A DNA stretch of 64,000 nt from a virus. The notes under the pieces were generated by a model. It worked only from the letters and a program-made list of their open reading frames with translations, did not search any database and was not told the DNA's origin. Positions within the stretch are counted from its first letter, which is position 1; every line of letters starts with the position of its first letter. Where the stretch lies: the UHGV virus genome UHGV-0225074; one strand, 5' to 3'. Made by a program: the position numbers and the translations under genes. This document shows, piece after piece, positions 13,335-59,737 of the stretch.

Positions 13335-13551
13335 TTCTTCTCCTCATAACATAGTGGATTAAGGCCCCGAAGGGCCATGCAAAACCAATGGCAAAGCAGA
13401 TTTCAGACCAGTCTCGATCTGTACGGGCTTTATAAATCTGCTTCAGGACTACGTCCTTTTCCATCTTTACTGAGTATACCACAGCAATTATCGCATATGC
13501 AACACCAAAAAGTCCTACCAGAGCTTCAATCATCCCATCTTGCTCCAGCAC
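13321..13551 (-). CDS. membrane protein (76 aa)
   Basis: Two hydrophobic segments. Confidence 0.45.
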   Translation of the reverse strand: MLEQDGMIEALVGLFGVAYAIIAVVYSVKMEKDVVLKQIYKARTDRDWSEICFAIGFAWPFGALIHYVMRRRNATA

Positions 13552-16214: not shown

Positions 16215-16665
16215 TATTCTGCTCCTCCAGCCAATCCCCAAGCTCATCCCTGGTCTGTTTGAAAGACTCAAGTTCAAGCAGTTTTTCATCTTTTTCCGTG
16301 AGCCTGTCTGCCAGGTTGAAAAGTCTTGCTAACGCATGGTTGAGCAGCGTTTTCTCAAATAGGGTTGCCCAAGAAATCCCTTTAAAACTGATTGAGTGAT
16401 CAGTCCCATACTCAGTTATATCGAAGATTTCCACCTTCTCTATGCGGAAAGGAAGCTCCCCATTTTTCCACACAAGAAATTTCCTTTTCCCTTCATATGC
16501 AGTCCTAAAGTTGTTCGCCTCTTTTTCCAAGAACTTAAGGAATTCCCAAGCCGGGTAATCACATCTCGCCACAAGTCGAGCATACTCTGCCTTCGCGTCT
16601 ATAGTATTCTTTGGAGAGCGTCTTATCCACCACAGGTTAAAGTCTTCGTGACTTACAAGTTTCAT
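16207..16665 (-). CDS. hypothetical protein (152 aa)
   Basis: ORF. Confidence 0.45.
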   Translation of the reverse strand: MKLVSHEDFNLWWIRRSPKNTIDAKAEYARLVARCDYPAWEFLKFLEKEANNFRTAYEGKRKFLVWKNGELPFRIEKVEIFDITEYGTDHSISFKGISWATLFEKTLLNHALARLFNLADRLTEKDEKLLELESFKQTRDELGDWLEEQNNA

Positions 16666-42827: not shown

Positions 42828-43603
42828 TATTTCTCCTTTGTCTGTAAAACAGTTTTACCTTCAAGGTGATCCTCAACCATTTTAACCAGGCCGGGATTAC
42901 TAAAGGCATCAACAGCTCCGGTACGATAAACTACAACACCCGCATCTTCGTACATCAACTGCTCGTCATATCTAACAGCAGGATTGACAACTACAACTTT
43001 AGTACCCCGCATAACCGCAGGGAACAATTCCCAGTTGAAGTTGATTACCGTGTTTGAACATCCAACAACAATTACAAGGTCTTGGCTTGTCAAGGACTCT
43101 AAGGTATCATACATAGGGCCATAGGCTGGAGCATTTTCACCAAAGAAAATTACGTTTGGTTTACACCAATCATAATCATCAGGATCAATTTGGTCGTAAC
43201 CAATATCGACAATCTCTATCTTCTGAGTGAAAGCATCTTTAACAAGGATCTCTTTCAGATAACCATGTATGTACAGAGTATCTTCTTTCGGTACACCTGC
43301 ACGTTCCAACAAATCATCGACGTTAGTCGTCATGTTGATAACTTGTCCAGGATAACGTTTGTACCATTCAGCAACACGAAGATGTGCAGCATTCGGGTGT
43401 ACCGTTGGTAACTCTGCACGACGCTTGTTATAAAACATGTGCGTTTTATGGTAGAAATTACCACGGAAGGCGTGTATGTTACAAACCTCCTCAAGGTCGT
43501 ATTCATCCCACAGGGCTTTACCAGATTCAGTATCTGTGCGGAATGTACGTACACCACTCTCCGCAGAGAAGCCAGCACCACTTATAACGATAAGACGTCT
43601 CAT
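42827..43603 (-). CDS. Sir2-family NAD-dependent deacylase/ADP-ribosyltransferase-like protein lacking Zn Cys motifs
   Basis: ISGAGFSAESGVRTFR, TTNVDDLLERAG and HG Sir2 motifs. Confidence 0.7.
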   Translation of the reverse strand: MRRLIVISGAGFSAESGVRTFRTDTESGKALWDEYDLEEVCNIHAFRGNFYHKTHMFYNKRRAELPTVHPNAAHLRVAEWYKRYPGQVINMTTNVDDLLERAGVPKEDTLYIHGYLKEILVKDAFTQKIEIVDIGYDQIDPDDYDWCKPNVIFFGENAPAYGPMYDTLESLTSQDLVIVVGCSNTVINFNWELFPAVMRGTKVVVVNPAVRYDEQLMYEDAGVVVYRTGAVDAFSNPGLVKMVEDHLEGKTVLQTKEK

Positions 43604-44250: not shown

Positions 44251-44595
44251 TCAGTAATTGTTTCTCAAGATCGTAATACGATACTTCGAGAAGCTCTCTT
44301 TTGCAAGCATGAACTTTTGTGCAGCAGAAGGGTTAGACGTGTGGACATAGAGTTTAGCATCATGCACAGGAAGTTTCCCATACACAAGCTTCTCTTCCAA
44401 GGCTAACAGGCAGTCATAGCCCTCCATTTCTGAATCTTCACCGAGGTCATTGTCGAAATGCCACTCTGTGACATAACGATAGAACTTTGACCGATTATCA
44501 AGAAAATCCATAAATTTCTGAGAGGTCTTGAACCACAATGCATCAGGATAACCGTAGTCTTTAGGGTCTCTTAAATCGTCAAGCCAGACAATCAT
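44251..44595 (-). CDS. hypothetical protein (114 aa)
   Basis: ORF between kinase and ligase. Confidence 0.45.
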   Translation of the reverse strand: MIVWLDDLRDPKDYGYPDALWFKTSQKFMDFLDNRSKFYRYVTEWHFDNDLGEDSEMEGYDCLLALEEKLVYGKLPVHDAKLYVHTSNPSAAQKFMLAKESFSKYRITILRNNY

Positions 44596-45554
44596 TTTTG
44601 AACTCCAACGTAAAAACGACTATCGCGATCAAAGAGGTCTTCAATCGCAAAATAATCTTCAACAACCTGACGACGTTTTTGAGAGTCCATCCCAGCCCAG
44701 TCGTCTTTAGAGTAATACTCACGAATATGGTCTAGCAACTCGTAATACTCTTCGTCAATACGCTTCTTGGCATCTTTCGGGTTATCCCAGATCATATCCC
44801 ACTTGTTATCACCTCCACGCATCAGGAATTTCTTCGCCAGATAATGTGGGGACTTGATTTTCAAAAGTAGTTCGCTATTTTCGTCATCTGTCCCGATATT
44901 TCGGACAACAAAACCTTCGTGGCTAACAGCATGACTGGCTGCAACGACATCGCCAAATGCACGGACATCCCATTGAGGACGTTTTGCACCGATCACTTCA
45001 GCGATGCGATCAAGTTTGTGCTCTTCAACCATAACACCGTTTAAAGCGAGATCACGGACACCAATCAGATAAGCACCTTCTTTCTCTTCCACAATATGTG
45101 GGTCGCTGCTATCGCATATTTCGAAAATGAAAGTGTAATCTTCACGGAAAGAAATCAGATCAAAATTCATTTTTTCGAGGTACTTACGAGCCAATTCTGA
45201 AAACTCAGAATCCAATGTCCCTGTTGTTGAAACGAGCAGCTTGTCTTTGTGTATTGCCGCTGTAGCCATAAAACCATTGACCTTGCGGGAACAAACAACC
45301 GGTTTGTCAAGAGGAAGGTCAGTTCCATTCTCGAAGCGGTTGAAAATCTTAGTGAAAGGCCAGATAATCACGTTGTCTTCTGAATCAACAACCATGCCAC
45401 GGCACTCAAGCAGTCGTGGGTCAGTATGCCACAGGTTATCCCAGAACACATTGTTCTTATACTTCAGCACAGAAAGACCCGCGAACGGGCCTTCGGTGTA
45501 AGTCTTTTTGGTTACCAGTTTTTTAGCAACCAAATCGTCTACGTTGAATTTCAT
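44592..45554 (-). CDS. Rnl2-like RNA ligase
   Basis: Motif I KVNG, motif IV EGFVVR, motif V K..K (LKIKSPHYLAKK); 320 aa. Confidence 0.55.
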   Translation of the reverse strand: MKFNVDDLVAKKLVTKKTYTEGPFAGLSVLKYKNNVFWDNLWHTDPRLLECRGMVVDSEDNVIIWPFTKIFNRFENGTDLPLDKPVVCSRKVNGFMATAAIHKDKLLVSTTGTLDSEFSELARKYLEKMNFDLISFREDYTFIFEICDSSDPHIVEEKEGAYLIGVRDLALNGVMVEEHKLDRIAEVIGAKRPQWDVRAFGDVVAASHAVSHEGFVVRNIGTDDENSELLLKIKSPHYLAKKFLMRGGDNKWDMIWDNPKDAKKRIDEEYYELLDHIREYYSKDDWAGMDSQKRRQVVEDYFAIEDLFDRDSRFYVGVQK

Positions 45555-46061: not shown

Positions 46062-46655
46062 TTATTCTCCGTGGTCAGCAGTGTAGATTGGTTTTTTGAG
46101 GCACATCAGGACTGCCTCACGCATCGTCAGAGGACGACCATGAACATCCCAACCTACATCGAGAATACGTCCACCGGGGGCTGTATAGGAGCCGTGGCTA
46201 TGCCCGTGCAACATAACTGACCCGTGGTGTGCTTTGTTCCACGATGCGAACGGATAGTGAGACATACACACATGCACCTTCTCTTTTCCAGTGCTGAAGT
46301 TAATCTCTTTATAATCAACGACTTCATGACCGAATTCACGGAAGATACGTTTCGTATCTCGGTTGTCATGGTTACCACCAACCAGAATGATCTTTCCGTT
46401 GATCTTTTCAAGGATGTCACGAACGCGAGGCTCCATGTAACGTCCGTAAGCAATCACGAAGTCACCAAGGTGCGCTACGACATCATCTGGTTTAACGTGC
46501 TTATTCCAGATTTCAATCATTCCTGCATTCATGGCATACAGACTTTCACGGTCTTCTTTTGGGCCGTACAGTTTCTTCCGGAATTTATCACACGAGGGAA
46601 AACCCAGAATATTGGTGTGCCACCAGTGCGTGTCTGACGTTACGTGGTCGATCAT
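46062..46655 (-). CDS. calcineurin-like metallophosphoesterase
   Basis: SDTHW ... HLGDF ... GGNHD ... GHSH metallophosphatase motifs. Confidence 0.7.
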   Translation of the reverse strand: MIDHVTSDTHWWHTNILGFPSCDKFRKKLYGPKEDRESLYAMNAGMIEIWNKHVKPDDVVAHLGDFVIAYGRYMEPRVRDILEKINGKIILVGGNHDNRDTKRIFREFGHEVVDYKEINFSTGKEKVHVCMSHYPFASWNKAHHGSVMLHGHSHGSYTAPGGRILDVGWDVHGRPLTMREAVLMCLKKPIYTADHGE

Positions 46656-48155: not shown

Positions 48156-48473
48156 ATGGGGTACATTGCAACAGGTAAGCACATCTACGGCAACTTCGAA
48201 CTGAAGCTGCTGTCGGTGACCTGTGCCTCTTCCAATGATAAGATAGTGTACCTATATATGCGGCATCAGTTCCATTACTTCAAATCGATGCGGAAGGAGT
48301 ACCACGAATCGCTGGATAGCATAGCTGATGCAGTTGGCCTATCACGGGCGACCACAACAAGGTGTGTAAGCAACCTTGAGAAATTAAAATGGTTGACAAA
48401 ACATACGACGCGTACCAAGATGGGTCACAACCAAACAATTTATGAAGTACATTCTTGGAAAGAGGAGAAATGA
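48156..48473 (+). CDS. winged-helix HTH DNA-binding protein (105 aa)
   Basis: GGAGGAG RBS; HTH-like SIADAVGLSRATTTRCVSNLEKL. Confidence 0.5.
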   Translation: MGYIATGKHIYGNFELKLLSVTCASSNDKIVYLYMRHQFHYFKSMRKEYHESLDSIADAVGLSRATTTRCVSNLEKLKWLTKHTTRTKMGHNQTIYEVHSWKEEK

Positions 48474-48474
48474 A

Positions 48475-49275
48475 ATGAGTTTAGAACTTCGTCTGAACAA
48501 ACTGGTAGTTCCTGTCGATCACTTTACGTTCAAAGGTGGTGAAGAACAGGTTAGAATCGATATGGCGCATACTCCGAAAGGTGGTATTGGTTTCGTAGAC
48601 ATCACTGCGAAAATTAAAAATTCTACTGATGTTATGGCACTTGCCATGTTGGTGGATGCATGTTCTCGCCTTGAAGGTCTCCATCATACTGCACAATTTA
48701 CTTTGCACTTGCCGTATATCCCATATGCACGTCAGGACCGCGTAATGCAACCTGGTGAAGCGTTATCCATCAAAGTTTTCGCAAATATCGTCAACTCTCT
48801 TGGGTTTGACAAGGTCATTGTCGATGATCCGCATAGCGATGTCTCCGCAGCACTGCTTAACAACGTTAAAATTCGTGGTCAGGATGCTCTTATTGCGGAA
48901 TTCCATGAAGGTCTTGCCGGAAAAGATGTTGTTATCGTTGCCCCTGACGCCGGAGCACGTAAAAAAGCTCAGAAAGTTTCCGATCGTCTCCGCCTCCCTC
49001 TGGTAGAAGCTGGAAAAGTGCGTGACCTGAAGACAAATGAAATTACCGGGACTGCTGTTTTCGGTGATGTTGAAGGCCGCGAGTGTGTTATTGTCGATGA
49101 TATCTGCGATGGTGGTCGAACATTCATTGCCCTGGCACAAGCATTGAAGGCAAAAGGTGCAAAACGTGTTATTCTTTACGTAACTCACGGTATCTTTTCC
49201 TTCGGTAAAGAAGTTATCTACGAAGGCGGCGTTGATGAAATCTACGCGTACCACGACTGGACCGAAAACTTTTAA
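48475..49275 (+). CDS. adps: ribose-phosphate pyrophosphokinase-like protein (Prs family; candidate NARP1 ADPR-PP synthetase Adps)
   Basis: AGGAG RBS before ATG 48475; PRPP-binding VIVDDICDGGRTF loop; paired with Nampt-like gene. Confidence 0.6.
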   Translation: MSLELRLNKLVVPVDHFTFKGGEEQVRIDMAHTPKGGIGFVDITAKIKNSTDVMALAMLVDACSRLEGLHHTAQFTLHLPYIPYARQDRVMQPGEALSIKVFANIVNSLGFDKVIVDDPHSDVSAALLNNVKIRGQDALIAEFHEGLAGKDVVIVAPDAGARKKAQKVSDRLRLPLVEAGKVRDLKTNEITGTAVFGDVEGRECVIVDDICDGGRTFIALAQALKAKGAKRVILYVTHGIFSFGKEVIYEGGVDEIYAYHDWTENF

Positions 49276-49335
49276 TTGACAAATGAATAAGTGGGCGTAC
49301 AATCGCCCTATTAAACAAACAAAGGAGAAACAAAA

Positions 49336-51022
49336 CATGCTTAATCAAGAAAGTCCTATCCTGTTCGCTGACTTTTACAAACCTTCACATATCTCCATGT
49401 ATGATAAACGTTCTGAAATTGTTCAGGATAACATGACCCCTCGTAATGCGAAGCACTTCATCCACTTCGCTGATAACGACCAGCGTGTCATGTTTGCTGG
49501 CCTTCAGGGATTTATTAAGTGGTTCCTTATCGACATGTTCAACAATAACTTCTTCAACCTCCCGAAAGAAGAAGCGGTTGCTGATTATCGTGAGGTTTGC
49601 GACTCCAGCATCGGCATTGGCATGGTAGAAACATGGGGCTTTGAGGCTCTTCATGATCTCGGTTATCTTCCTCTGGAAATCCGTGCTCTTCCAGAAGGGA
49701 CGCTTTCTCCGGTTCAGGTCCCAATGTTTACAATCCAGAATACGCACCCGGATTTTTACTGGTTGCCTAACTTCTTGGAAAGTGTGATCTCCGCAGAAAC
49801 TTGGAAAACTATCACAACTGCAACGACGTTCTGGCAGTATCGCAAGCTGTCTGAAAAATGGGCTGCTGAGACCTGTGATAACAACGACCATGTTGCATTC
49901 CAGAACCACTGCTTCGCATATCGCGGTGAAGCTGGTACTCACGACGCAGCACAGAGCGAATTTGGTCAACTGATCAACTCTATGGGTACAGACACTATCC
50001 CAGCGATTCTGTATGCTCGTCGTTATTACAACATGAAAGGCAAGTTCGTTGCTGGTTCTATTCCTGCATCTGAACACTCTGTTGCAACCACGAACATCGG
50101 CTTTATCGTCGGTCGCCTACAAGGTGAACACCCGGAACTAACTCTGGACGAAGCACGTTTCCTGGCTGAGGTTGAATTCCTGCGTTTCTACATCACGGAA
50201 ATTTTCCCTAAAGGTTTTGTTTCCTACGTGGCAGACAGTTATGACTTCTGGGCGATTATCACCAAAGCAGCAGCGATCCTGAAACAGGACATCATGGCAC
50301 GTGATGGTCGTGTTGTTTTCCGTCCTGACTCCGGCATTCCTGAACATATCATTGCAGGCTATCGTAGCCTCGGTGAGTTTGATGACTGGTCTGATGCGCT
50401 GCCAGCACTACAGGAAGATTCAAATTCAGAAGTTGCCAAGATTGAAGGTAAATACTACCGGATTCTTGTTGACGATGAAGATAATGCCTACTTCGACTTC
50501 CAACCTTCAGGTCTTGAAGAGCATGAAGTTAAGGGTGCAATTCAGTGTCTGTGGGAAATCTTTGGTGGTGAAGTTAACTCCAAGGGTTACAAAGTTCTGG
50601 ACAGTCATGTAGGTCTGATCTATGGTGATTCCATCACTGTTGCTCGTGCAAAAGACATCTTTGAACGTCTGAAAGATAAAGGCTTTGCATCCAGCAATAT
50701 CGTGTACGGTGTTGGTTCCTTTACCACCCAGTATACAACCCGTGATTCACTTGGTATGGCTGTGAAAGCAACTGGCGCTGTGATTGATGGTCAGCAGATC
50801 ATGGTTGTCAAAGAACCGAAGACTGACCTCGGTAAGAAATCTGCAAAAGGTTTCCTGAAGGTTGTTCGTGATGAGAATGGCGAACTGAAACTGGTTGACA
50901 ATTGTCAGCTTGAAGAGGTACAGTCTGAAGATAATGAACTGCGTCGTGTGTTCTACAACGGCAAACTGATTGTCGATGAAGATCTGACAACGATTCGTGA
51001 ACGCGCAGCCGATCAACTGTAA
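49336..51022 (+). CDS. namat: nicotinamide phosphoribosyltransferase-like protein (NadV/Nampt family; candidate NARP1 Namat)
   Basis: AAGGAG RBS before ATG 49336; ILFADFYKPSH matches the Nampt DSYK motif; about 560 aa. Confidence 0.6.
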
Positions 51023-52256: not shown

Positions 52257-52273
52257 TATCTACCACATCAAAC

Positions 52274-52346
52274 GTTCAGTAGCTCAGTTGGTAGAGCAGG
52301 TTCTTCATACGGACAAGGTCAGTGGTTCAATTCCGCTCTGAACGAT
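52274..52346 (+). tRNA. tRNA-Met(CAT)
   Basis: Cloverleaf by eye: CGTTCAG/CTGAACG acceptor, GCTC/GAGC D-stem, loop TTCATAC, T-loop TTCAATT. Confidence 0.6.
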
Positions 52347-52349
52347 AAG

Positions 52350-52424
52350 GCCCTCAAGCTCATTAGGTATGAGCAATCGACTCATAATCGAGAGGTAGGC
52401 AGGTTCGAATCCTCCGGGGGTCAC
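52350..52424 (+). tRNA. tRNA with CAT anticodon (Met/fMet/Ile-lysidine), CCA encoded
   Basis: Acceptor GGCCCTC/GGGGGTC with G-U pairs; loop CTCATAA; T-loop TTCGAAT. Confidence 0.55.
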
Positions 52425-52518
52425 CAATTAAAAATGTTGGCGAGGATATCTGATTGAGTTAGTATCCTCATGAACATAAACGGGACAAATTCCCAAATAA
52501 AATGCAAAGGAGAAAATT

Positions 52519-52830
52519 ATGACTAAGAAAAATACTGCTAAGAAAGTATCCGCCATCGACGCTATCAAACAGCCTTTCCAGTTTGAGTCGAAGTCTACTC
52601 AGACTCATTCTGCACCGCACGATGTGCGTCTCGGTGGTGTAGAGAAAACCGTATCAGTTTTCGATCGCCGTAAAGGCGAGTATAAATCCGAAACCCGGAT
52701 TGAAGGTGGTCAGATTATCTCTGCTTCTTACCGCATCCGCACAGGAAAGACCAAGCGTGAACGTGCTGGTAAGGTAAAGGAAACTAAGGTTGTTGAAACC
52801 GTAGCTCCGAAGAGTAAGAAGAAAAAGTAA
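52519..52830 (+). CDS. Lys-rich basic protein (103 aa)
   Basis: AAGGAG RBS; C-terminal APKSKKKK; inside tRNA array. Confidence 0.5.
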   Translation: MTKKNTAKKVSAIDAIKQPFQFESKSTQTHSAPHDVRLGGVEKTVSVFDRRKGEYKSETRIEGGQIISASYRIRTGKTKRERAGKVKETKVVETVAPKSKKKK

Positions 52831-52892
52831 TTTCTCCGGCATGGGGAATGACGATTCCGTGAAACGTCTTTAAAAACACGGGCATGTTTTCG

Positions 52893-52965
52893 GGGGTATT
52901 AACACAGCGGTTAGTGTAGCGGCCTCTTAAGCCGAAGGTCGAAGGTTCGAATCCTTCATGCCCCA
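52893..52965 (+). tRNA. tRNA-Lys(CTT), CCA encoded
   Basis: GGGGTAT/ATGCCCC acceptor, ACAC/GTGT D-stem, loop CTCTTAA, GAAGG-TTCGAAT-CCTTC T-arm. Confidence 0.6.
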
Positions 52966-53096
52966 CCAAGTTTGAAATGAGAGAGATACGGGTTCGACTC
53001 CCGTTCTTGCTGGCCCGGCTCGCGTAGTGGCACAGGGCGATAGCTTAAATGGACGAAAGTGCTCTCGTTTCAAATCTAAACCAAAAGGAGAACGAA

Positions 53097-53285
53097 ATGT
53101 TCGGATCCCTGTTACGTATGGCTGGCGATATTGTTGGTACTGCTGTTGTTGTCACGGCAACTGTTGCAGAACCTTTTGTAGATGTAGCCGCAGAAGTTCT
53201 TGACGCCGCTGATGAGATTATCGTATCACCTACCGCAGACGTCGTTGGTGAAGTTTGTGACTCCATTAAGGACATTGTACGATGA
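53097..53285 (+). CDS. small hydrophobic/acidic protein (62 aa)
   Basis: AAAGGAG RBS before ATG 53097. Confidence 0.45.
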   Translation: MFGSLLRMAGDIVGTAVVVTATVAEPFVDVAAEVLDAADEIIVSPTADVVGEVCDSIKDIVR

Positions 53286-53419
53286 GTGGCGGTGTTATCT
53301 TTATCATCATGTCAGTGATCTCTTTCCTGCTTGTTCTTTGGTATTATTGGTCATGGTTTGAAAACAACCCTACCACCGAAGAAATAATCAAAGATTCGCT
53401 TGACAAACACAATCTGTAA
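53282..53419 (+). CDS. small membrane protein (45 aa)
   Basis: ATGA coupling; single TM; not in ORF track. Confidence 0.4.
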   Translation: MSGGVIFIIMSVISFLLVLWYYWSWFENNPTTEEIIKDSLDKHNL

Positions 53420-53428
53420 GTGTAGTAT
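53400..53428 (+). promoter_or_regulatory. sigma70-like promoter (TTGACA-17-TAGTAT)
   Basis: Consensus -35 with 17-bp spacer, 30 nt upstream of 53461 gene. Confidence 0.5.
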
Positions 53429-53460
53429 TTAAAACCTAATTTAACGCAAAGGAGAACTTA

Positions 53461-54072
53461 ATGACTGATTCTAAAACTGTAATTTCCGTAACTGAACGTG
53501 CCACTAAAGCAGTAACCACTGCCGCTACTGGTCTGACTAAAGTAGTCGCTGAACTGCAATCTCTGGCAGAAGGGTCTGAAAAGATCAGTCAGGAAATTCA
53601 GTTTAAGCAGCAGGAACTGGGACAAATTGAAGTTCAGTTCAACGAAAAACTGGCAGAAGAAAAATCCAAGCTGAAGATCAAAGTTCTGGAAAATGAAGAT
53701 TCCGTTCTGAACTCTATCCTGAAAGCTCGCGGCCTTGTAGCTGTAGAACCGGGTGTTGTTGAAGACCTTCGTGCAGAGCTGGCGATCTCTCAGCAGAACA
53801 ATGCTGAAGCTGTAGAAAGCGCAGTTGCCGACGTTAAACGTAGCGCTGCAATCGAACTGAATGCGGTTAAGGCAAATCTGGAATCTGCTCACAAGGTTGC
53901 AATTGCAGAACTTACTGCGAATAGCAAGGCTAAGGATGACCGTATTGCAATGCTGACAGAACAGCTTGAAGCAGCGCGTGGTGATCTGAAGGCTGAACGC
54001 GAAACCCGTCTGGAAATCGCAAAAGCTGATGCTAACCGCCAGGGCGTTGTTGTCAACACTGGCAAAAACTAA
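53461..54072 (+). CDS. coiled-coil protein (203 aa), codon-optimised
   Basis: AAGGAG RBS; Ala/Glu/Lys-rich heptad-like sequence; E. coli-preferred codons. Confidence 0.55.
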   Translation: MTDSKTVISVTERATKAVTTAATGLTKVVAELQSLAEGSEKISQEIQFKQQELGQIEVQFNEKLAEEKSKLKIKVLENEDSVLNSILKARGLVAVEPGVVEDLRAELAISQQNNAEAVESAVADVKRSAAIELNAVKANLESAHKVAIAELTANSKAKDDRIAMLTEQLEAARGDLKAERETRLEIAKADANRQGVVVNTGKN

Positions 54073-54146
54073 TGCGTAGTGTCGACACGGATGTCGGCAA
54101 ATATTTGAAGTAACTTAAATTTTAAATTTCATGAGAGGAGAATTCT

Positions 54147-54794
54147 ATGTCTACTAAGATGTCTGTAACCCGCGCTCTGGCTACCCTGACCAAGGTTGAG
54201 GAAAAGATTCAGAAGCGTATCGAAGCGCTGAACACGATTCACATCGCGAAAGGCACTGACGCAAACCGTCAGATCCCAGGCTCTATCCAGAGCGTTGAGG
54301 ACTTCGAGAAATCTGCTCAGGCAGACTTCCAGGGTGTTCAGGATCTTCTGGCTGTTCGCGACGACCTGAAGGCGAAAGTTGTTCAGTCAAACGCTGTAAC
54401 AAAAGTTGAGATCGCTGGCGAGTCTATGACCGTAGCTCAGGCGATTGAACGTAAACGCACCATCGTTTTCAAAGAGCTTCTGCTTGGCAAACTGAAGTCT
54501 CAGTATAATCATGCTCAGGTTCGCCTGAACCGTGATACACAGGAATTCGAAGCGAAGCTTGAAGCTGCTCGTGCTCCATATGTCCAACGTGATAAAGCGC
54601 CAGACGCTGCACAGTTGGCTGTAGTAGAAGCGCCAGTTCGTAGCATGGGAACTCCTTCCATTGTCGACCCACTGGGTCTGGCAGATCGCATTCGTTCTCT
54701 GGAAGCAGAGATTGAAGACTTCAAGTCTAACGTTGACTTTGTTCTTTCCGAGTCAAATGCACGGACTGAAGTAGAGATTGAAGGATCAATCTAA
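54147..54794 (+). CDS. coiled-coil protein (215 aa), codon-optimised
   Basis: GAGAGGAG RBS; same style as 53461 gene. Confidence 0.55.
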   Translation: MSTKMSVTRALATLTKVEEKIQKRIEALNTIHIAKGTDANRQIPGSIQSVEDFEKSAQADFQGVQDLLAVRDDLKAKVVQSNAVTKVEIAGESMTVAQAIERKRTIVFKELLLGKLKSQYNHAQVRLNRDTQEFEAKLEAARAPYVQRDKAPDAAQLAVVEAPVRSMGTPSIVDPLGLADRIRSLEAEIEDFKSNVDFVLSESNARTEVEIEGSI

Positions 54795-55195
54795 AATATT
54801 TGCAGGAATTCTTGATTAACATCTTGTAATTCCTGTGAATAGCTGGTAAAGTTTTTAAATGCTGTTTTTGGTTAGCGAAGTCAGAAACATCTTGCCTCTA
54901 CCGGGGCCGGAGGTTAAACTGCTCCGAACATAATCATATAGGATGATACTTAAACGTATGTTTCCGTCAGTCCGCACAATGATGCGGTTTGATCGAAATT
55001 GTCGAATCGCGAATTCGAAAGACTTCAACATTCAGCATTCAAAGATTATCGTTCAAAGCTTAATGTTTAAACTTGAAGCTTCTAAACCGTAAAGCTAAAA
55101 TTTCTTTGATTACTTAAATCCTGGGTATAGGATCTTAGCTCACAAGATATGGCTAACTGACTCCTCCAGGCTGTTAATCGGAAACAGCATTTCTT

Positions 55196-55268
55196 GCTCG
55201 TATAGCTCAGTTGGTAGAGCAACTCCCTTGTAAGGAGAAGGTCGTGGGTTCAAGTCCTACTGCGAGCA
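55196..55268 (+). tRNA. tRNA-Thr(TGT), CCA encoded
   Basis: GCTCGTA/TGCGAGC acceptor, loop CTTGTAA, T-loop TTCAAGT. Confidence 0.65.
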
Positions 55269-55277
55269 CCAAACAAT

Positions 55278-55349
55278 TTCTCGATAGCTTACTTTGGTTA
55301 GAGCGGTCCCACGATAGGGACGGTACAGGTTCGATTCCTGTTCGAGAAG
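55278..55349 (+). tRNA. atypical tRNA-like gene, anticodon unclear (6-nt loop ACGATA on GTCCC/GGGAC stem)
   Basis: Perfect acceptor TTCTCGA/TCGAGAA, D- and T-arms present, CCA encoded, irregular anticodon arm. Confidence 0.35.
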
Positions 55350-55354
55350 CCAAT

Positions 55355-55460
55355 GCAGGGTAGGCGGTTTGTCAACCGCGAGGTCCATCCAGACCTGAAA
55401 AATATGCCAGAACTAACAGTACGGCTAAATACATAGGTGGTTAGATTCCACCGCCCTGCT
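55355..55460 (+). tRNA. atypical long (106 nt) tRNA-like gene with about 38-nt insert in the variable region
   Basis: Acceptor GCAGGGT/GCCCTGC, D-arm GCGG/CCGC, T-arm GGTGG-TTAGATT-CCACC, CCA encoded; anticodon arm irregular. Confidence 0.3.
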
Positions 55461-55645
55461 CCAAATCTATTCTGCTAGGTTCTGAAACACTTAAAATCTC
55501 CTGCATCTAGTGGGGTGTGATCTCTGTGTCGGCTTTGATATCAAGTTGATGAAAGGGATGGCGTAGGCTCTTCTTCGCAAGTAGAGGCGCTTCGGAGAGG
55601 CAACGGCGGTTGTCAGGACATCGGGACTTCACAAAATAGATTTCT

Positions 55646-55731
55646 GCGGGATTGGTGGTATTGGCAGTACACACGAGGCTTAAGACTTCGTAGGCCTCTG
55701 GGCCTTGAGGGTTCGAATCCCTCATCCCGCA
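55646..55731 (+). tRNA. tRNA-Leu(TAA), type II, CCA encoded
   Basis: GCGGGAT/ATCCCGC acceptor, loop CTTAAGA, variable-arm hairpin AGGCC/GGCCT. Confidence 0.6.
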
Positions 55732-55740
55732 CCAGTTTAA

Positions 55741-55819
55741 GAGGGCGTATCTCAACGGGCTTCTAACCCGTCGTTAATCGAGTAATTGGAGTATGCGGGT
55801 TCGAATCCTGCCGCCTTCG
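55741..55819 (+). tRNA. tRNA-Arg(TCT)-like, atypical (no clear D-arm)
   Basis: Perfect ACGGG-CTTCTAA-CCCGT anticodon arm and T-arm, CCA encoded; only 7 nt between acceptor and anticodon stem. Confidence 0.3.
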
Positions 55820-55938
55820 CCAAATTCACAGGACAGCCGGGACGGGTTTACTCCGAGCTGTGGAAGCGTCGAAAGACTATAGGACACGTCTTGACCCGAA
55901 TGTGTGGGAGCGAATTGAAATAATCGGGTCCCCCAAAA

Positions 55939-56009
55939 GCACGGTTGCTGGAGTGGCAACAGCTTTCTCTGCAAAAGAAATGTCAGGTGTTCGATTCACC
56001 TACCGTGCT
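55939..56009 (+). tRNA. tRNA-Cys(GCA), CCA encoded
   Basis: GCACGGT/ACCGTGC acceptor, TTTCT-CTGCAAA-AGAAA anticodon arm. Confidence 0.6.
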
Positions 56010-56051
56010 CCAAGTTGTTGAATATTTTTATAAAAAATGATAAAATGGCCC

Positions 56052-56080
56052 TTGACAGATAAATTTAAATCTGATAACAT
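56052..56080 (+). promoter_or_regulatory. sigma70-like promoter (TTGACA-17-TAACAT)
   Basis: Consensus -35 upstream of 56098 gene. Confidence 0.35.
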
Positions 56081-56097
56081 TAATAAGTGGGGTTATT

Positions 56098-56448
56098 ATG
56101 GCAGTAAAACAACAACTTACAAAGCGTCGTAGAGGAAAAGGTAGACCCCTTAAAGAAGAGTCTAATGCTATTCAGCTTGAGAAGAATATCCTTGACCTTA
56201 AGACCAATATGATTGCTATGATTCCTGATGCTCATAAGGTATTGAAAGATCTTATGACAAGTGCCACAACAAAGGACAATATCAGGGAAAATATTGCTCG
56301 ATTTGTAATTGAGAAAGGCGAACAAATGCTTTCTGATTACTTCGATGAAGAGAATGAAGAAGCTGAAACAACTAATGTTGATGACAATAAGTCTACTCCT
56401 ATGAGTAGGCCGTTCACAACAGATATTGTTCAGTTCAAACAAGGTTAA
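56098..56448 (+). CDS. hypothetical protein with basic N-terminus (116 aa)
   Basis: ORF inside tRNA array; KRRRGKGRP. Confidence 0.5.
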   Translation: MAVKQQLTKRRRGKGRPLKEESNAIQLEKNILDLKTNMIAMIPDAHKVLKDLMTSATTKDNIRENIARFVIEKGEQMLSDYFDEENEEAETTNVDDNKSTPMSRPFTTDIVQFKQG

Positions 56449-56450
56449 TT

Positions 56451-56531
56451 GGCTCGTTGGCAGAATGGCTATTGCAGCGGATTGTAAATCCGTGCCCTTC
56501 GGGGTTCCTGGTTCGAGTCCAGGGTGGGCCA
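56451..56531 (+). tRNA. tRNA-Tyr(GTA), type II, CCA encoded
   Basis: Loop TTGTAAA on GCGGA/TCCGT stem; variable-arm hairpin; T-loop TTCGAGT. Confidence 0.55.
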
Positions 56532-56540
56532 CCAATTAAT

Positions 56541-56613
56541 GGGAGTATAGCTCAGTCAGTAGAGCGCTCGACCGATAATCGAGAGGTCGCAGGAGCAAAG
56601 CCTGCTACTCCCA
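56541..56613 (+). tRNA. tRNA-Ile(GAT), unusual T-loop AGCAAAG
   Basis: GGGAGTA/TACTCCC acceptor, CTCGA-CCGATAA-TCGAG anticodon arm, CCA encoded. Confidence 0.5.
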
Positions 56614-56706
56614 CCACTCTCCGTCATAGTACCGCATCCTGACGTTTCGGATTGCATAATCAAGGTACTGGGAACTAGTAAGATACTATGACGGGATCGA
56701 TTTAAA

Positions 56707-56780
56707 GCGTTATTAGTGTTAGCGGTCCAGCACTCCGTCCTTCCAAGTCGGAAGCATCGGTTCGAATCCGATATAACGCT
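56707..56780 (+). tRNA. tRNA-Gly(TCC), CCA encoded
   Basis: GCGTTAT/ATAACGC acceptor, loop CTTCCAA, ATCGG-TTCGAAT-CCGAT T-arm. Confidence 0.6.
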
Positions 56781-56864
56781 CCAAATACGCCCCTAAACTG
56801 ATGAACGTCTGCGCGGCTGGAAACACCCACTCAATAGTTCAGATACCCAGGGGCAACAAACAAA

Positions 56865-56937
56865 TGCTCCTATCGGCTAAATGGACAGGCCGTCAGACTT
56901 TCAATCTGGAAATCCGAGTTCGATCCTCGGTGGGAGT
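56865..56937 (+). tRNA. tRNA-Glu(TTC), CCA encoded
   Basis: TCAGA-CTTTCAA-TCTGG anticodon arm, CCGAG-TTCGATC-CTCGG T-arm. Confidence 0.55.
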
Positions 56938-56947
56938 ACCAAATAAT

Positions 56948-57048
56948 GGGTATCTAAGGCGAATTGGAAAACGCCCGGTGAAGTGGGTGCGCACCTTGTA
57001 GCTCACTGGCATACTTGCTGAGGTTCGTTTGAGTCGGACTGATGCCCA
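56948..57048 (+). tRNA. atypical long tRNA-like element (about 100 nt)
   Basis: Acceptor GGGTATC/GATGCCC plus CCA and a good D-arm GGCG-AATTGGAAAA-CGCC; anticodon and T regions do not fold canonically. Confidence 0.25.
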
Positions 57049-57055
57049 CCAAACA

Positions 57056-57135
57056 ATGTGCGGGTAACTTAATTGCTCCGGGAGCAAGCTGGTCTCCAAA
57101 GCCAGTCGTAAGGGGTTCGACTCCTCACCTTCATG
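57056..57135 (+). tRNA. tRNA-Trp(CCA)-like, acceptor stem poorly paired
   Basis: Good D-arm TTGC/GCAA and CTGGT-CTCCAAA-GCCAG anticodon arm; T-loop TTCGACT; 3' G-CCA; 5' end uncertain. Confidence 0.3.
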
Positions 57136-57154
57136 CCAGATAATGGGGGCGACC

Positions 57155-57285
57155 GGATGTTGAAAATGACTATGATCTACCGCTGCAACGGGAAATCTTG
57201 TCGGTCATAAGTAAGCATGGCGGCAACAAAATAAGCTGAGGATTGCAGTCCGATACTTAGCCTGGCTCGGTTTCAGGCGCCCTCA
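57155..57285 (+). ncRNA. long tRNA-like or structured RNA element bracketed by acceptor-like stem GGGGGCG/CGCCCTC
   Basis: Pairing termini only; internal fold unresolved. Confidence 0.15.
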
Positions 57286-57293
57286 CCGATTGT

Positions 57294-57366
57294 AGGGAGA
57301 TGGTGTAATTGGTTAGCACACGGGTCTTTGAAATCCGTAGTTCAGGTTCAAGTCCTGATCTCCCTG
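57294..57366 (+). tRNA. tRNA-Gln(TTG), CCA encoded
   Basis: AGGGAGA/TCTCCCT acceptor, CGGGT-CTTTGAA-ATCCG anticodon arm, T-loop TTCAAGT. Confidence 0.6.
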
Positions 57367-57563
57367 CCAAGTTTGAGTGTTTTCTTTTGAGAATACTCAT
57401 GCGTGGCCTAAGCATTTATCAGATGATGTTCAACCTGTGACGTTGAGGAAGTGGGAGCGATACCCACAGGTCACCCCAATTTGCAGATACGTGATTATCT
57501 CTATCTTCCCACGTCATGTGTTCTAGTCGAGATTTTCGTTTGTACGATATCTGCCGCGAATTT

Positions 57564-57651
57564 GGTGGAATGGTCGAGAGGTTTAAGACAGCACCTTGGA
57601 AAGGTGTAGGCCCCCAAAAGGGGTCCGTAGGTTCGAATCCTACTTCCACCG
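57564..57651 (+). tRNA. tRNA-Ser(GGA), type II, CCA encoded
   Basis: GGTGGAA/TTCCACC acceptor, GCACC-TTGGAAA-GGTGT anticodon arm, long variable-arm hairpin. Confidence 0.6.
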
Positions 57652-57672
57652 CCACTTTATGGAGGGTTTATG

Positions 57673-57828
57673 CAGAAACTTTTGCGTTGCAAGAAAGTGT
57701 TTGGACGCTGTAGGCTCCACGGTAGTAACTGTGGTGTTGCAGAAGAAATTCAATCAGTCCCTATTACTCGTGCGAAAGAAAAAGCAGATCTTCGTAAAGA
57801 AATTAAAGAACAATTGGAAGATTAACCC
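57673..57828 (+). CDS. possible small Cys-rich protein (51 aa)
   Basis: GGAGGG upstream (short spacing); C..C..C..C; stop lies inside tRNA-Ser(GCT) 5' end. Confidence 0.2.
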
Positions 57829-57905
57829 TAATCAGGTAAGGGATCTCTTTGCTAAAGAGACAGTAGCTCCGAAAGGGGTGTGCGAGTTCAAGTCTTGCAT
57901 CTTCC
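57816..57905 (+). tRNA. tRNA-Ser(GCT), type II, CCA encoded
   Basis: GGAAGAT/ATCTTCC acceptor, TCTCT-TTGCTAA-AGAGA anticodon arm, variable-arm hairpin. Confidence 0.55.
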
Positions 57906-57933
57906 GCCAAAACAACAAGGAGGAACAAATCGA

Positions 57934-58380
57934 ATGGCGACGAAAACTGTTTTGAAAACAGCCGAGCATGATGAGTGCCTTGGGAGTTCAACTCTCCCTT
58001 CCTCCGCCAAATATTGCAATGGGTGCGCAACAACGTATCCAATAAGCGAGTTCTACACGATAGGTAAGTACAAAGACAAAATGAAATATAAACCTTTGTG
58101 CAAACGTTGTGAGAATAAACGCAGAAAAGAAAGGAATCTTGAGATAATCAAGGAAGTGTTTGGAGAAAATCTCTGCTGCTCATCTTGTGGATATGACAAG
58201 TGCTTTGCTGCTCTTGACTTCCATCATGTAGATGCAGAATCGAAAGACTTCAATATCGCTAAGATGCTACTTGGGACGCCAGCAAAAGAGAAGCTGGCAG
58301 CAGAATTGAAGAAGTGTATGATTCTTTGTGCGAATTGTCACAGGGAGCACCACGCAGAAGAAAGATTATCGGGTAGGTAG
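57934..58380 (+). CDS. HNH homing endonuclease embedded in tRNA array
   Basis: AGGAGG RBS; CCSSCG ... FHHVD ... CANCHREHH HNH motif; 3' end overlaps tRNA-Lys(TTT). Confidence 0.7.
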   Translation: MATKTVLKTAEHDECLGSSTLPSSAKYCNGCATTYPISEFYTIGKYKDKMKYKPLCKRCENKRRKERNLEIIKEVFGENLCCSSCGYDKCFAALDFHHVDAESKDFNIAKMLLGTPAKEKLAAELKKCMILCANCHREHHAEERLSGR

Positions 58381-58443
58381 CCGAGCGGTCAGGCATTCGC
58401 CTTTTAAGCGAAGAGACGATGGGTTCAAATCCCTCCCTTCCCA
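58371..58443 (+). tRNA. tRNA-Lys(TTT), CCA encoded (T-stem weak)
   Basis: TTCGC-CTTTTAA-GCGAA anticodon arm, T-loop TTCAAAT. Confidence 0.45.
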
Positions 58444-58506
58444 CCAAATTGAATCGGTTAAAATAATTCTTGCAAAAGGTTGTTTTCACTGGTAAAGTAT
58501 TAAAAT

Positions 58507-58588
58507 GACGAGCTGGTTCATTGGTAGAACGGCGGACTGTTAATCCGCGAGCATTAGCTCTATGTAGGTTCAATTCCTACGCTCGTCG
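58507..58588 (+). tRNA. tRNA-Asn(GTT), long variable arm, CCA encoded
   Basis: GACGAGC/GCTCGTC acceptor, GCGGA-CTGTTAA-TCCGC anticodon arm, GTAGG-TTCAATT-CCTAC T-arm. Confidence 0.6.
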
Positions 58589-58598
58589 CCAAATTTAT

Positions 58599-58671
58599 GG
58601 GGATATGGTATTAGCGGCAAACATACTGGCCTGTCACGCCGGAGTCACGGGTTCGAATCCCGTTATCCTCG
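58599..58671 (+). tRNA. tRNA-Asp(GTC), CCA encoded
   Basis: CTGGC-CTGTCAC-GCCGG anticodon arm, ACGGG-TTCGAAT-CCCGT T-arm. Confidence 0.5.
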
Positions 58672-58678
58672 CCATCTT

Positions 58679-58749
58679 GGGAAATTAGTTAAGTGATATA
58701 ATGGCCTCTGGTGCTGAGGGCGTCTCCTGTTCGACTCAGGAATTTCCCG
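58679..58749 (+). tRNA. tRNA-His(GTG)? (anticodon loop TGGTGCT irregular), CCA encoded
   Basis: GGGAAAT/ATTTCCC acceptor, GTTA/TAAT D-stem, TCCTG-TTCGACT-CAGGA T-arm. Confidence 0.4.
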
Positions 58750-58894
58750 CCAATTTGATATGTTGATGTAAATTGCCGGAAGGCACTCAAAATGAGTTCG
58801 ACGTATCAAACCAATTGTACCCTAACGGGGCATGATATTAGCTAGCCAGCGATACCAGTTGCAGTGTCTGGGATAATTAAAATTCTGCACTTAT

Positions 58895-58969
58895 CTCTCC
58901 TTAGCGCAGTCTGGTCAGCGTGGGTGCTTTGGATGCATCGGGTCCCAGGTTCGAATCCTGGAGGGGAGA
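58895..58969 (+). tRNA. tRNA-Pro(TGG), CCA encoded
   Basis: GGTGC-TTTGGAT-GCATC anticodon arm, CCAGG-TTCGAAT-CCTGG T-arm. Confidence 0.6.
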
Positions 58970-59031
58970 CCAAATAAGGTTTATCGTGGGGCGATGGAAA
59001 CTTAGTTAACCATGCGACGGTAAAAATTAAT

Positions 59032-59101
59032 GTGGGTGTCCTGACGGACAGGCAACGGTCTACGAAGCCGTTTGATGTAGGTTCGAGTCCTTCCATCCAC
59101 A
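59032..59101 (+). tRNA. tRNA-Arg(ACG), short D-loop, CCA encoded
   Basis: ACGGT-CTACGAA-GCCGT anticodon arm, T-loop TTCGAGT. Confidence 0.5.
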
Positions 59102-59108
59102 CCACCAT

Positions 59109-59181
59109 GGGGCTGTAGTTTATTTGGATAAAATCACAGGCTTGCACCTTGTAGAACTGAGTTCGATTCTCAGTGGCTCCA
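59109..59181 (+). tRNA. tRNA-Ala(TGC) with G3:U70, CCA encoded
   Basis: ACAGG-CTTGCAC-CTTGT anticodon arm, CTGAG-TTCGATT-CTCAG T-arm; G3-U70 AlaRS identity pair. Confidence 0.55.
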
Positions 59182-59350
59182 CCAAATGAAGAAGCCGGAC
59201 TCGGTGTACAACGACATGGCAAGTCTTCGGCGTTAAAGGCATCCCTGGTACAAATGTGCTTTACACGGAGCAAGGATTGATGAGTATATTGCCTATAAGT
59301 GCTTGTCATGGTATTTGTCCGAGGGTGGCATTCTCCCGAAGGATCGATTA

Positions 59351-59432
59351 GGGCAAGTGGCGAAATTGGTAGACGCACCAGATTTAGGTTCTGGCGTCCT
59401 ATGACGTGAGAGTTCGAGTCTCTCCTTGCCCA
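59351..59432 (+). tRNA. tRNA-Leu(TAG), type II, CCA encoded
   Basis: GGGCAAG/CTTGCCC acceptor, GCG-AAATTGGTAGA-CGC D-arm, CCAGA-TTTAGGT-TCTGG anticodon arm, variable-arm hairpin. Confidence 0.65.
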
Positions 59433-59441
59433 CCACACATC

Positions 59442-59524
59442 GGGTCGGTAGCTCAGTTGGTAGAGCACCTGATTGAAGATCAGGGTGTCGGTGGTTCGAA
59501 TCCACCCCGTCCCGCCAAACAATT
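59442..59524 (+). tRNA. tRNA-Phe(GAA), CCA encoded
   Basis: GCTC-AGTTGGTA-GAGC D-arm, CCTGA-TTGAAGA-TCAGG anticodon arm, GGTGG-TTCGAAT-CCACC T-arm. Confidence 0.6.
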
Positions 59525-59618
59525 CTCTGTGATGCAGGTTCAACTCCTGTCAGGACGGCAAAGCCTTCGGGTGGAGAGGTCGTGTGCGTGAAGTGGTTAA
59601 CGGCAGGGAATCCAATAT

Positions 59619-59691
59619 TGCGGGTTAGAACTCAGGGAGTTCATCGGTCTCATAAGCCGAACGAAGAGCAGTTCGAGTCTGCTACCCGCAT
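59619..59691 (+). tRNA. third tRNA with CAT anticodon (Met/fMet/Ile-lysidine), CCA encoded
   Basis: TGCGGGT/ACCCGCA acceptor, GAAC/GTTC D-stem, TCGGT-CTCATAA-GCCGA anticodon arm, AGCAG-TTCGAGT-CTGCT T-arm. Confidence 0.55.
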
Positions 59692-59737
59692 CCAAATTCT
59701 AATAACAATAAATTATTATATCTCCTCTCCTTTGCCT

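Follow-up and report, generated by a model that had tools for sequence, protein, structure and literature searches.

Two non-canonical tRNA-like RNAs in the tRNA array of phage genome UHGV-0225074 and a conserved RNA family of the Vequintavirinae

Introduction

Within its transfer RNA (tRNA) cluster, directly beside tRNA genes, phage T4 carries two small stable RNAs of unknown function, rnaC and rnaD (species 1 and 2 RNA). Both have large non-tRNA domains, with rnaC showing paired termini and a tRNA-type T arm (CCGGG-UUCGAAU-CCCGG). Here we analyse two further putative RNAs, E1 and E2, which lie side by side in the tRNA array of UHGV virus genome UHGV-0225074; the window refers to the whole stretch of DNA analysed, 64,000 nucleotides (nt). 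E2 differs from rnaC and rnaD in keeping a complete cloverleaf that includes the D arm, an anticodon-like arm and the elbow pair, and a covariance model built for E2 in this analysis gave no match in T4 rnaC/rnaD (L150 2909-3172). The T4 RNAs are the closest working likeness to E2, and are not homologous to it.

To our knowledge, a pure decoy or inhibitor role has been demonstrated for no phage RNA. Like E1 and E2, nuclease-evading phage tRNAs (T5 tRNA-Tyr against retron-Eco7/Septu PtuAB, T5 tRNA-Lys against PARIS, and mycobacteriophage variants) are array-encoded and changed in the anticodon loop or variable arm, where defence nucleases cut; they are functional decoders with 7-nt loops that replace the cleaved host tRNA, with a decoy role being discussed (PMC13096335, PMC11555353, PMC11464382, PMC10264068). 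E1 and E2 differ from them in loops of the wrong size and without U33, a geometry that does not suit canonical decoding and most probably precludes it. In tRNA-Tyr it is the variable arm that Septu and retron-Eco7 PtuAB cut; T5 tRNA-Tyr resists via a distinctive variable loop, and phage tRNA may be a 'decoy or supplement' (PMC13096335). Phage tRNAs with anticodon-loop changes evade nucleases (PMC10264068), bacterial Schlafen cleaves the anticodon arm (PMC13056530), and OLD is reported to amputate the anticodon arm (PMC12445682).

A long variable arm is shared between E2 and the bacterial tRNA-Sec and allo-tRNAs, as is a D arm that can be drawn with 6 base pairs (bp) and a 4-nt loop; the likeness to tRNA-Sec extends to UCA in the loop of one E2 clade and to a weak Rfam match. 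Unlike tRNA-Sec, with its 8/5 geometry (13-bp acceptor/T), or allo-tRNA, with 12 bp as 8/4 or 9/3 (PMC7609411), E2 has a 7/5 acceptor/T in every member. Further, tRNA-Sec combines G73 with UCA in a 7-nt loop, whereas the E2 of the window has U73 and the loop CAUCCA, and the 7-nt E2 clade has UCA but A33 and a 4-bp stem. The E2 insert is far longer than the extra arm of either tRNA type and contains single-stranded linkers, and its tRNA-Sec score is less than half the gathering score.

Other RNAs that are tRNA-shaped with a degenerate anticodon arm, like E1 and E2, are Bacillus cereus tRNA-Other (PMC3399842), YrlA and mascRNA, which undergo tRNA-type processing but play no part on the ribosome. 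Their sequences have no relation to those of E1 and E2, and no phage tRNA array encodes any of them. YrlA (RF02553) has a Ro-binding helix formed from its termini, whereas the termini of E1 and E2 form a plain acceptor stem, and RF02553 gave no match at either; mascRNA arises as a by-product when a long non-coding RNA is processed.

Results

The region is 99.8% identical to Klebsiella phage vB_KpnM_VIK251 (Vequintavirinae, Mydovirus); the tRNA array of the window occupies positions 52273-59694 of the + strand, with 24 ARAGORN calls. Both E1 and E2 have the cloverleaf of a canonical tRNA (7-bp acceptor, 5-bp T stem, D arm), and both depart from the canonical anticodon arm (5-bp stem, 7-nt loop, U33, purine 37) with the loops ACGAUA and CAUCCA, respectively. 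Among the 23 canonical tRNAs of the array, 22 have U33 within a 7-nt loop. Unconstrained minimum free energy folds of E1 and E2 are cloverleaves, with z = -2.3 and -3.6. E2 escapes ARAGORN, which lists E1 as 'tRNA-???' and gives it an anticodon of 2 bases. In an Rfam search restricted to the stretch of E1 and E2, E1 scored 39.8 bits against tRNA (RF00005, gathering score 29), for which E2 gave no match at E ≤ 10; the Rfam score of E2, 21.8 bits against tRNA-Sec (RF01852), does not reach the gathering score of 47.

E1 comprises 75 nt with the sequence UUCUCGA UA GCUU ACUUUGGUUA GAGC G GUCCC ACGAUA GGGAC GGU ACAGG UUCGAUU CCUGU UCGAGAA G CCA, folding into a 7-bp acceptor, 4-bp D (one G.U), 5-bp anticodon and 5-bp T stem with a variable region of 3 nt; the D loop holds GG, and the T loop is UUCGAUU. 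E2 reads GCAGGGU AG GCGG UUUGUCAA CCGC G AGGUC CAUCCA GACCU, followed by a 39-nt insert and GGUGG UUAGAUU CCACC GCCCUGC U CCA. In the window, U19 of its D loop pairs with A56 of its T loop, the corresponding pair in other clades being G19/C56.

An earlier note on this DNA, made from the letters alone, had described two adjacent tRNA-like genes with encoded CCA and 6-nt anticodon loops, and the cloverleaves found here agree with it. The ends it gave, 55349 and 55460, are the discriminator bases, and the CCA comes after both, so that the genes end at 55352 and 55463. The E2 insert that it reported is real; it measures 39 nt rather than about 38 and occupies the place of the variable arm, outside the anticodon region. 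Of the checks it proposed, covariance-model scoring was run with the outcome given above, and comparison with related phages supported every stem of E1 and E2.

By BLAST, E2 of the window type was retrieved from 74 GenBank phage records spanning Mydovirus, Seunavirus and Henunavirus, and rV5-type E2 from 122 further GenBank records. Contigs of rV5-like and Av-05-like phages from IMG/VR and 25 metagenome copies were added by motif scans and the covariance model, under which the scores of members lie at 81-122 bits and those of ordinary tRNAs do not exceed 28 bits. Every genome carries a single copy. A looser two-linker pattern returned about 120 or more loci in IMG/VR, and 0 of 99 model-scored loci were true members. 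Neither E1 nor E2 had a sequence match among 5,426 E. coli genomes, and the E2 motif was found in none of 185,579 bacterial species genomes, on which grounds mimicry or capture of a host RNA was rejected; no Rfam family covers E2, and literature searches found no description of either RNA. Judged by its sequences, E2 is an old, previously undescribed RNA family found throughout the Vequintavirinae, in about 200 GenBank genomes. In public records it goes by tRNA-OTHER, tRNA-Lys, tRNA-TERM suppressor or hypothetical protein, and some give it no annotation at all. The rV5-type E2 is present at 99-100% identity in eighteen records with the name 'Campylobacter phage' (e.g. MG065662, MG065677, MG065647; ~137-141 kb), which are apparently genomes of rV5-like coliphages filed under Campylobacter.

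In an alignment of 15 distinct E2 sequences, 99.4% of 313 helix cells are paired, as compared to 32-45% in slid controls, and 9 of the 21 pairs, spread over all four helices, have changed on both sides (raw counts). For the metagenome set the values are 98.3% and 12 of 21 pairs; this alignment was fitted to the model and therefore leans towards the structure. RNAalifold recovers the E2 cloverleaf without guidance. The tertiary 19:56 pair covaries perfectly, with G/C in 12 and U/A in 6 distinct sequences, so that the L-shaped elbow is maintained. Small coding sequences annotated over E2 in Mydo and SSE121 were rejected as not coding because of the compensatory RNA changes and of hairpin swaps that break the frame.

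The anticodon-like hairpin is present in every E2 member, with compensatory changes in its stem, and its loop differs by lineage. Mydovirus and Seunavirus have loops of 6 nt (CAUCCA, CAGCCA, CCGCCA, CCUCCA, CUUCCA, CCUCAA, GUGAUA), Henunavirus-like lineages have 7 nt with A33 on a 4-bp stem (CAUCAAA, UAUCAAA), and rV5-like phages have 5 nt (UUUUA, UUAUA). The 6-nt loop CUUCCA is the sole variant having U at position 33. Two metagenomic carriers of 7-nt-loop E2, L175 (2791-2865) and L161 (7862-7934), also encode an amber suppressor tRNA with CUA anticodon, called 'tRNA-Pyl' by ARAGORN.

The insert of E2 measures 31-40 nt and places a hairpin in constant register between two linkers, 7-9 nt long on the 5' side and 9-10 nt long on the 3' side. 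The family has nine or more versions of this hairpin that are unrelated to one another, and it is swapped even between Mydovirus genomes with ~95% identical flanks; the type a hairpin of the window is common to K54lambda, Ro1, Henunavirus and the Schitoviridae phage UTK0002, and more diverged in L161 and L175. No segments of E2 are more conserved than the linkers, G(U)AAAA and AAUACAUAGG, also in the BLAST-derived set, for which they were no search criterion, and AAUACAUA of the 3' linker, together with the GG after it, is invariant among all BLAST-derived homologs. The IMG/VR and metagenome members were retrieved by a pattern containing the 3' linker and the T arm. Across clades the discriminator is U, A or C, and the rV5 clade has no encoded CCA. 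These features of E2 speak against an identity conserved for decoding or for aminoacylation, and point to a function that depends on shape, with a specific contact at the linkers.

The gene is also mobile. Salmonella phage vB_SenP_UTK0002, a podophage of the Schitoviridae, carries E2 in its tRNA array (100 bits, 88% identical to the Erwinia-phage version), from which we conclude that horizontal transfer between phage families occurred at least once. tRNA-Thr adjoins E2 in most of the lineages surveyed; the neighbours (Thr, E1, Arg, Leu, Asn) and the side on which they lie change by lineage, and E2 is always kept.

Several other assignments for E2 were tried and rejected. Its linkers have no convincing complementary target within the window that would suggest an antisense small RNA. 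Global alignments of the E2 core and of E1 with the 23 canonical tRNAs gave weak scores, so that paralogy with the array tRNAs was set aside for both on this measure. Only within the 6-nt clade does a Gly identity (G1-C72, C2-G71, U73, NCC) hold; NINP13076 (CCUCAA), the CAUCAAA clade and the rV5 clade do not conform to it. In rV5-like phages, a T-run after E2 that might have ended a stand-alone transcription unit is the 4-nt spacer before tRNA-Thr.

E1 is more narrowly distributed, with homologs only in Mydovirus and some Seunavirus phages, where public annotation calls it tRNA-Ser, pseudo-tRNA-Ser or tRNA-Ile. Across nine distinct variants all 21 stem pairs are retained, with changes on both sides at pairs 2-71 and 7-66, and indels fall in loops only. 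The anticodon loop has 6 nt in Mydovirus (ACGAUA), 7 nt in PVP-SE1-like phages (AAGAUUC, ACGAUUA, ACGAUUC) and 8 nt in SPLA5a and EspYZU08 (ACAGAUCC); GAU is present in every version and U33 in none. The canonical tRNA-Ile(GAU) of the same array itself has C33 (loop CCGAUAA) in place of U33, which is near-universal in tRNAs, next to an odd T loop (AGCAAAG), so that E1 looks like a derivative of a lineage-specific C33-type Ile loop. On sequence grounds, E1 thus looks like a younger, dispensable paralog of the tRNA-Ile(GAU) of the subfamily, with loop nucleotides lost or gained. The C33 of tRNA-Ile, which may be a nuclease-evasion change, is conserved in three further divergent lineages of the Vequintavirinae (L152, L165, L157); in the Schitoviridae, phage UTK0002 has a normal loop. 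In GAP31 (L013 225-298), 4MG (L012) and L157 (2617-2690), a tRNA-Arg(GCG)-like gene with a 3-nt variable region, C37 and the loop CUGCGCA replaces E1 in the slot between tRNA-Thr and E2.

The coordinates of both genes, their parts and the other features of the window are given in Table 1.

Table 1. Coordinates of E1, E2 and associated features in the window
Feature	Position	Strand	Basis or remarks
E1, tRNA-Ile(GAU)-like mimic	55278..55352	+	Four stems intact, discriminator G, encoded CCA; sequence, ARAGORN, folding, Rfam
E1 anticodon arm GUCCC-ACGAUA-GGGAC	55306..55321	+	6-nt loop, C at U33 site
E2, class-II-shaped tRNA-like RNA	55355..55463	+	109 nt, 7/5 acceptor/T, discriminator U, encoded CCA
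E2 D arm GCGG-UUUGUCAA-CCGC	55364..55379	+	Alternative drawing 6 bp + 4-nt loop
E2 'anticodon' hairpin AGGUC-CAUCCA-GACCU	55381..55396	+	6-nt loop
E2 5' linker GAAAAAUAU	55397..55405	+	GAAAA core near-invariant in family
E2 variable-arm hairpin type a, GCCAGAACUAACAGUACGGC	55406..55425	+	
E2 3' linker UAAAUACAUA	55426..55435	+	
E2 T arm GGUGG-UUAGAUU-CCACC	55436..55452	+	
Cluster order: tRNA-Thr(UGU), 6-nt gap, E1, 2-nt gap, E2	55196-55271, 55278-55352, 55355-55463	+	
Canonical tRNA-Thr(UGU), 5' neighbour of cluster	55196..55271	+	ARAGORN; Rfam 69.8 bits
Candidate sigma-70-like promoter TTGAAG-17-TAAAAT, 5' of Thr-E1-E2 cluster	55073..55101	+	Consensus scan, inferred only
Hairpin GCUGUUAAUCGGAAACAGC, then U-rich run	55170-55188	+	Directly 5' of tRNA-Thr
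Third non-canonical tRNA-like gene	55741-55822	+	Rfam tRNA 34.9 bits; ARAGORN miss
Canonical tRNA-Ile(GAU)	56541-56616	+	
Decaying tRNA-Trp(CCA)	57062-57130	+	
tRNA-Ser(UGA)-like gene	57919-58005	+	Rfam tRNA-Sec 30.5 bits; ARAGORN miss
RlaP 'RNA repair pathway' nucleotidyltransferase	13530-14603	-	
Class II CCA-adding enzyme with HD domain	16662-17909	-	
Sir2-family protein	42827-43603	-	
Rnl1-type RNA ligase	44592-45554	-	
Metallophos phosphoesterase	46062-46655	-	
Phosphoribosyl pyrophosphate (PRPP) synthetase	48442-49275	+	Directly 5' of array
Nicotinamide/nicotinate phosphoribosyltransferase	49283-51022	+	Directly 5' of array

Within the array, the tRNA-Trp(CCA) is in decay: its anticodon arm (GCUGGU-CUCCAAA-GCCAGU) and GCCA tail are intact, acceptor pairing is lost and z = -0.46, which accounts for the 'missing' Trp of the array. 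Relatives have an intact tRNA-Trp at the same place (L157 949-1025, L165 4186-4272). Two further unusual genes were noted. The third non-canonical tRNA-like gene, annotated 'tRNA-OTHER' in Iguana_ER37, combines an encoded CCA and the loop CUUCUAA (UCU) with a G3.U70 pair, an irregular D region and a long additional segment; the tRNA-Ser(UGA)-like gene, whose CCA is not fully encoded, has a counterpart in phage Mydo that is annotated as third tRNA-Ser. The hairpin in front of tRNA-Thr could be a processing or attenuation signal, and a sequence resembling it also precedes tRNA-Thr in Av-05 (L026). The open reading frames neighbouring the array (nicotinate phosphoribosyltransferase, hypotheticals, a tail-fibre-like protein) were uninformative.

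The window further encodes an RNA-repair kit (Table 1). Of this, the Rnl1 ligase is common to the listed rV5-like, Seunavirus (PVP-SE1-like) and Mydovirus records, and the CCA-adding enzyme to Seunavirus and Henunavirus. In T4, Pnkp and Rnl1 repair tRNA cut by PrrC. By analogy, host nucleases that damage tRNAs appear to exert a constant pressure on the subfamily. A Sir2-family protein and a nicotinamide adenine dinucleotide (NAD) salvage pair, PRPP synthetase and nicotinamide/nicotinate phosphoribosyltransferase, are also encoded and resemble the NAD+ reconstitution counter-defence of phages.

Discussion

We consider it very probable that E1 and E2 are selected, non-canonical tRNA-like RNAs, neither pseudogenes nor ordinary decoders. 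Among the readings offered in the earlier note, 'regulatory or decoy tRNA mimics' fits best, given a conserved L-shaped body that is combined with a non-canonical anticodon loop of variable length. Two others fall away quickly: an intron-containing precursor is at odds with the place of the insert between anticodon stem and T stem, the conserved linkers and the lack of an Rfam intron family match, and the supposed missing tRNA-Val has its anticodon in neither loop, with the related arrays L152, L157, L165, L175, Mydo and rV5 also having no Val tRNA.

As to function, we favour non-decoding tRNA mimics that act as decoys of, or competitors against, tRNA-cleaving host defences, with a probability of roughly 40%. 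E1 and E2 would probably share a transcript with tRNA-Thr; cleavage by RNase P would set their 5' ends, and exonucleolytic trimming would bring the 3' ends back to the encoded CCA. This would yield stable RNAs of L shape that end in CCA and are of no use to the ribosome. They would act in trans as shape mimics competing for host tRNA-binding enzymes, most plausibly defence nucleases directed at the anticodon or variable arm, with the fast-changing loop and the variable-arm hairpin as the contested surfaces. Since nucleases attack the anticodon and variable arms, these would be the two fast-evolving parts of a decoy. A more ambitious version is possible, though less likely than not: E2 might be the first member of a class of phage RNA anti-defence elements, a tRNA-shaped, non-decoding decoy or inhibitor that binds PtuAB/Septu-type or anticodon-arm-cutting nucleases, with the swappable hairpin and loop as arms-race interface, and mobile between phage families in tRNA arrays.

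Several points weigh against the decoy reading. Literature searches found no expression, processing or binding data for any E1 or E2 member. The covariation counts for both RNAs are raw and ignore the kinship of the sequences, and the invariance of the linkers in the IMG/VR and metagenome sets arises partly by construction, because the 3' linker is in the search pattern. An arms race explains the hypervariable loops no better than relaxed constraint does. Neither the decoy reading nor any other model accounts for the two near-invariant single-stranded linkers of E2, and because neither RNA has any sequence likeness to a host tRNA, any mimicry would be of shape only. For E1, selection on the 6-nt loop is weakly documented, as the Mydovirus copies are nearly identical; the gene is gone by clean deletion at a CAAT microhomology in K54lambda-type phages, and is absent from Ro1 and Henunavirus.

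Among the alternatives, cis-acting processing 'punctuation' fares best, and we still regard it as unlikely. Here the folds would be kept only for correct cutting of the array transcript by RNase P and 3' exonucleases, with the RNAs themselves as by-products, as mascRNA and the plant mitochondrial t-elements are tRNA-like processing signals. The tight spacing of 2-6 nt to neighbouring tRNA genes in every lineage would agree with this. RNase P recognises the acceptor, T arm, elbow and RCCA, and it is these parts of E1 and E2 that are conserved, while loops irrelevant to processing vary freely. The flanking tRNAs, however, have RNase P sites of their own, so that no extra signal is needed; E2 is kept despite changed neighbours and sides and despite transfer to another phage family; and neither its invariant linkers nor its anticodon-like hairpin is needed by RNase P.

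It is very unlikely, in our estimate, that the two RNAs are working decoders of an unusual kind, with E2 as a UGA suppressor or a Sec- or Trp-like tRNA and E1 as a tRNA-Ile with non-standard loop, possibly decoding by frameshift or quadruplet. The 7-nt E2 loops CAUCAAA and UAUCAAA of Henunavirus, Schitoviridae and several metagenomes, which ARAGORN-based annotation gives as a tca suppressor, would suit this reading, as would a CCA mostly kept in the loop of the 6-nt clade, an array whose only tRNA-Trp has decayed, the retention of GAU by all E1 versions, the encoded CCA, and the CUA suppressor tRNAs of other subfamily members. Against it, the loop has 5, 6, 7 or 8 nt depending on the clade, U33 occurs in the single variant CUUCCA, and the 7-nt clade combines A33 with a 4-bp stem. 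The discriminator varies between U, A and C, the rV5 clade does not encode CCA, and the loop of NINP13076 is CCUCAA; the tRNA-Sec score of 21.8 bits contrasts with a gathering score of 47, and a 6-nt loop is unable to present an anticodon in the canonical U-turn. The frameshift or quadruplet decoders suggested in the earlier note lack support on the same ground, with loops of 5-8 nt in close relatives and U33 missing save in CUUCCA: a quadruplet-type loop would have 8 nt, the loops of the window have 6, and 8 nt occur only in E1 of SPLA5a and EspYZU08, where U33 is lacking.

With similarly little confidence, E1 and E2 can be taken as substrates or cofactors of phage RNA enzymes (Rnl1 ligase, RlaP, CCA-adding enzyme) or as non-ribosomal aminoacyl carriers. 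Analogues exist in YrlA, encoded in Rsr/RtcB repair operons, and in the non-proteinogenic tRNA-Gly of Staphylococcus. The repair kit is in the same genome, and its ligase is common to the sampled E2-bearing myophage clades; the CCA end and L-shape are conserved, and the invariant linkers suggest a dedicated protein contact. In the 6-nt clade, the combination of G1-C72, C2-G71, U73 and loop NCC resembles the identity elements of E. coli GlyRS (glycyl-tRNA synthetase). But E2 is not adjacent to the repair genes, discriminator and loop differ between clades and thus allow no common aminoacylation identity, and E2 has neither a Ro-binding helix of YrlA type nor an Rfam YrlA match.

Drift towards loss, finally, is an explanation to which we give a low probability for the pair; it would most plausibly apply to the Mydovirus E1, as a tRNA-Ile paralog inactivated when its loop lost 1 nt. 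Its loss in K54lambda-type phages, its absence from Ro1 and Henunavirus and its replacement in GAP31 and 4MG would be expected of such a gene, tRNAscan-based annotation marks it as pseudo tRNA-Ser, and the Mydovirus genomes are too similar for conservation of 6 nt to inform. The intact 21 stem pairs of E1 in nine variants, with compensatory changes and with indels in loops only, speak against it, as do the 9-12 compensatory pairs and the covarying tertiary pair of E2 across genera and families. The earlier note had likewise listed decaying pseudogenes, and held that accumulating indels in related phages would count against functional RNAs; the alignment shows compensatory changes and no indel decay. 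The true pseudo-tRNA-Trp of the array breaks its stems instead. E1 and E2, with perfect stems and an abnormal loop, are its reverse and are therefore not classed as pseudogenes.

The inconsistent labels of E2 in about 200 GenBank genomes are an annotation problem. As PVP-SE1, rV5-like phages and Klebsiella Mydovirus are candidates for therapy and biocontrol, the label 'suppressor tRNA' can raise needless concern. Phage tRNA arrays are seen as counter-defence tools, so far only by way of working replacement tRNAs; if the decoy reading is true, a conserved, mobile, non-decoding mimic carried together with a repair kit would point to a second strategy, that of RNA decoys.

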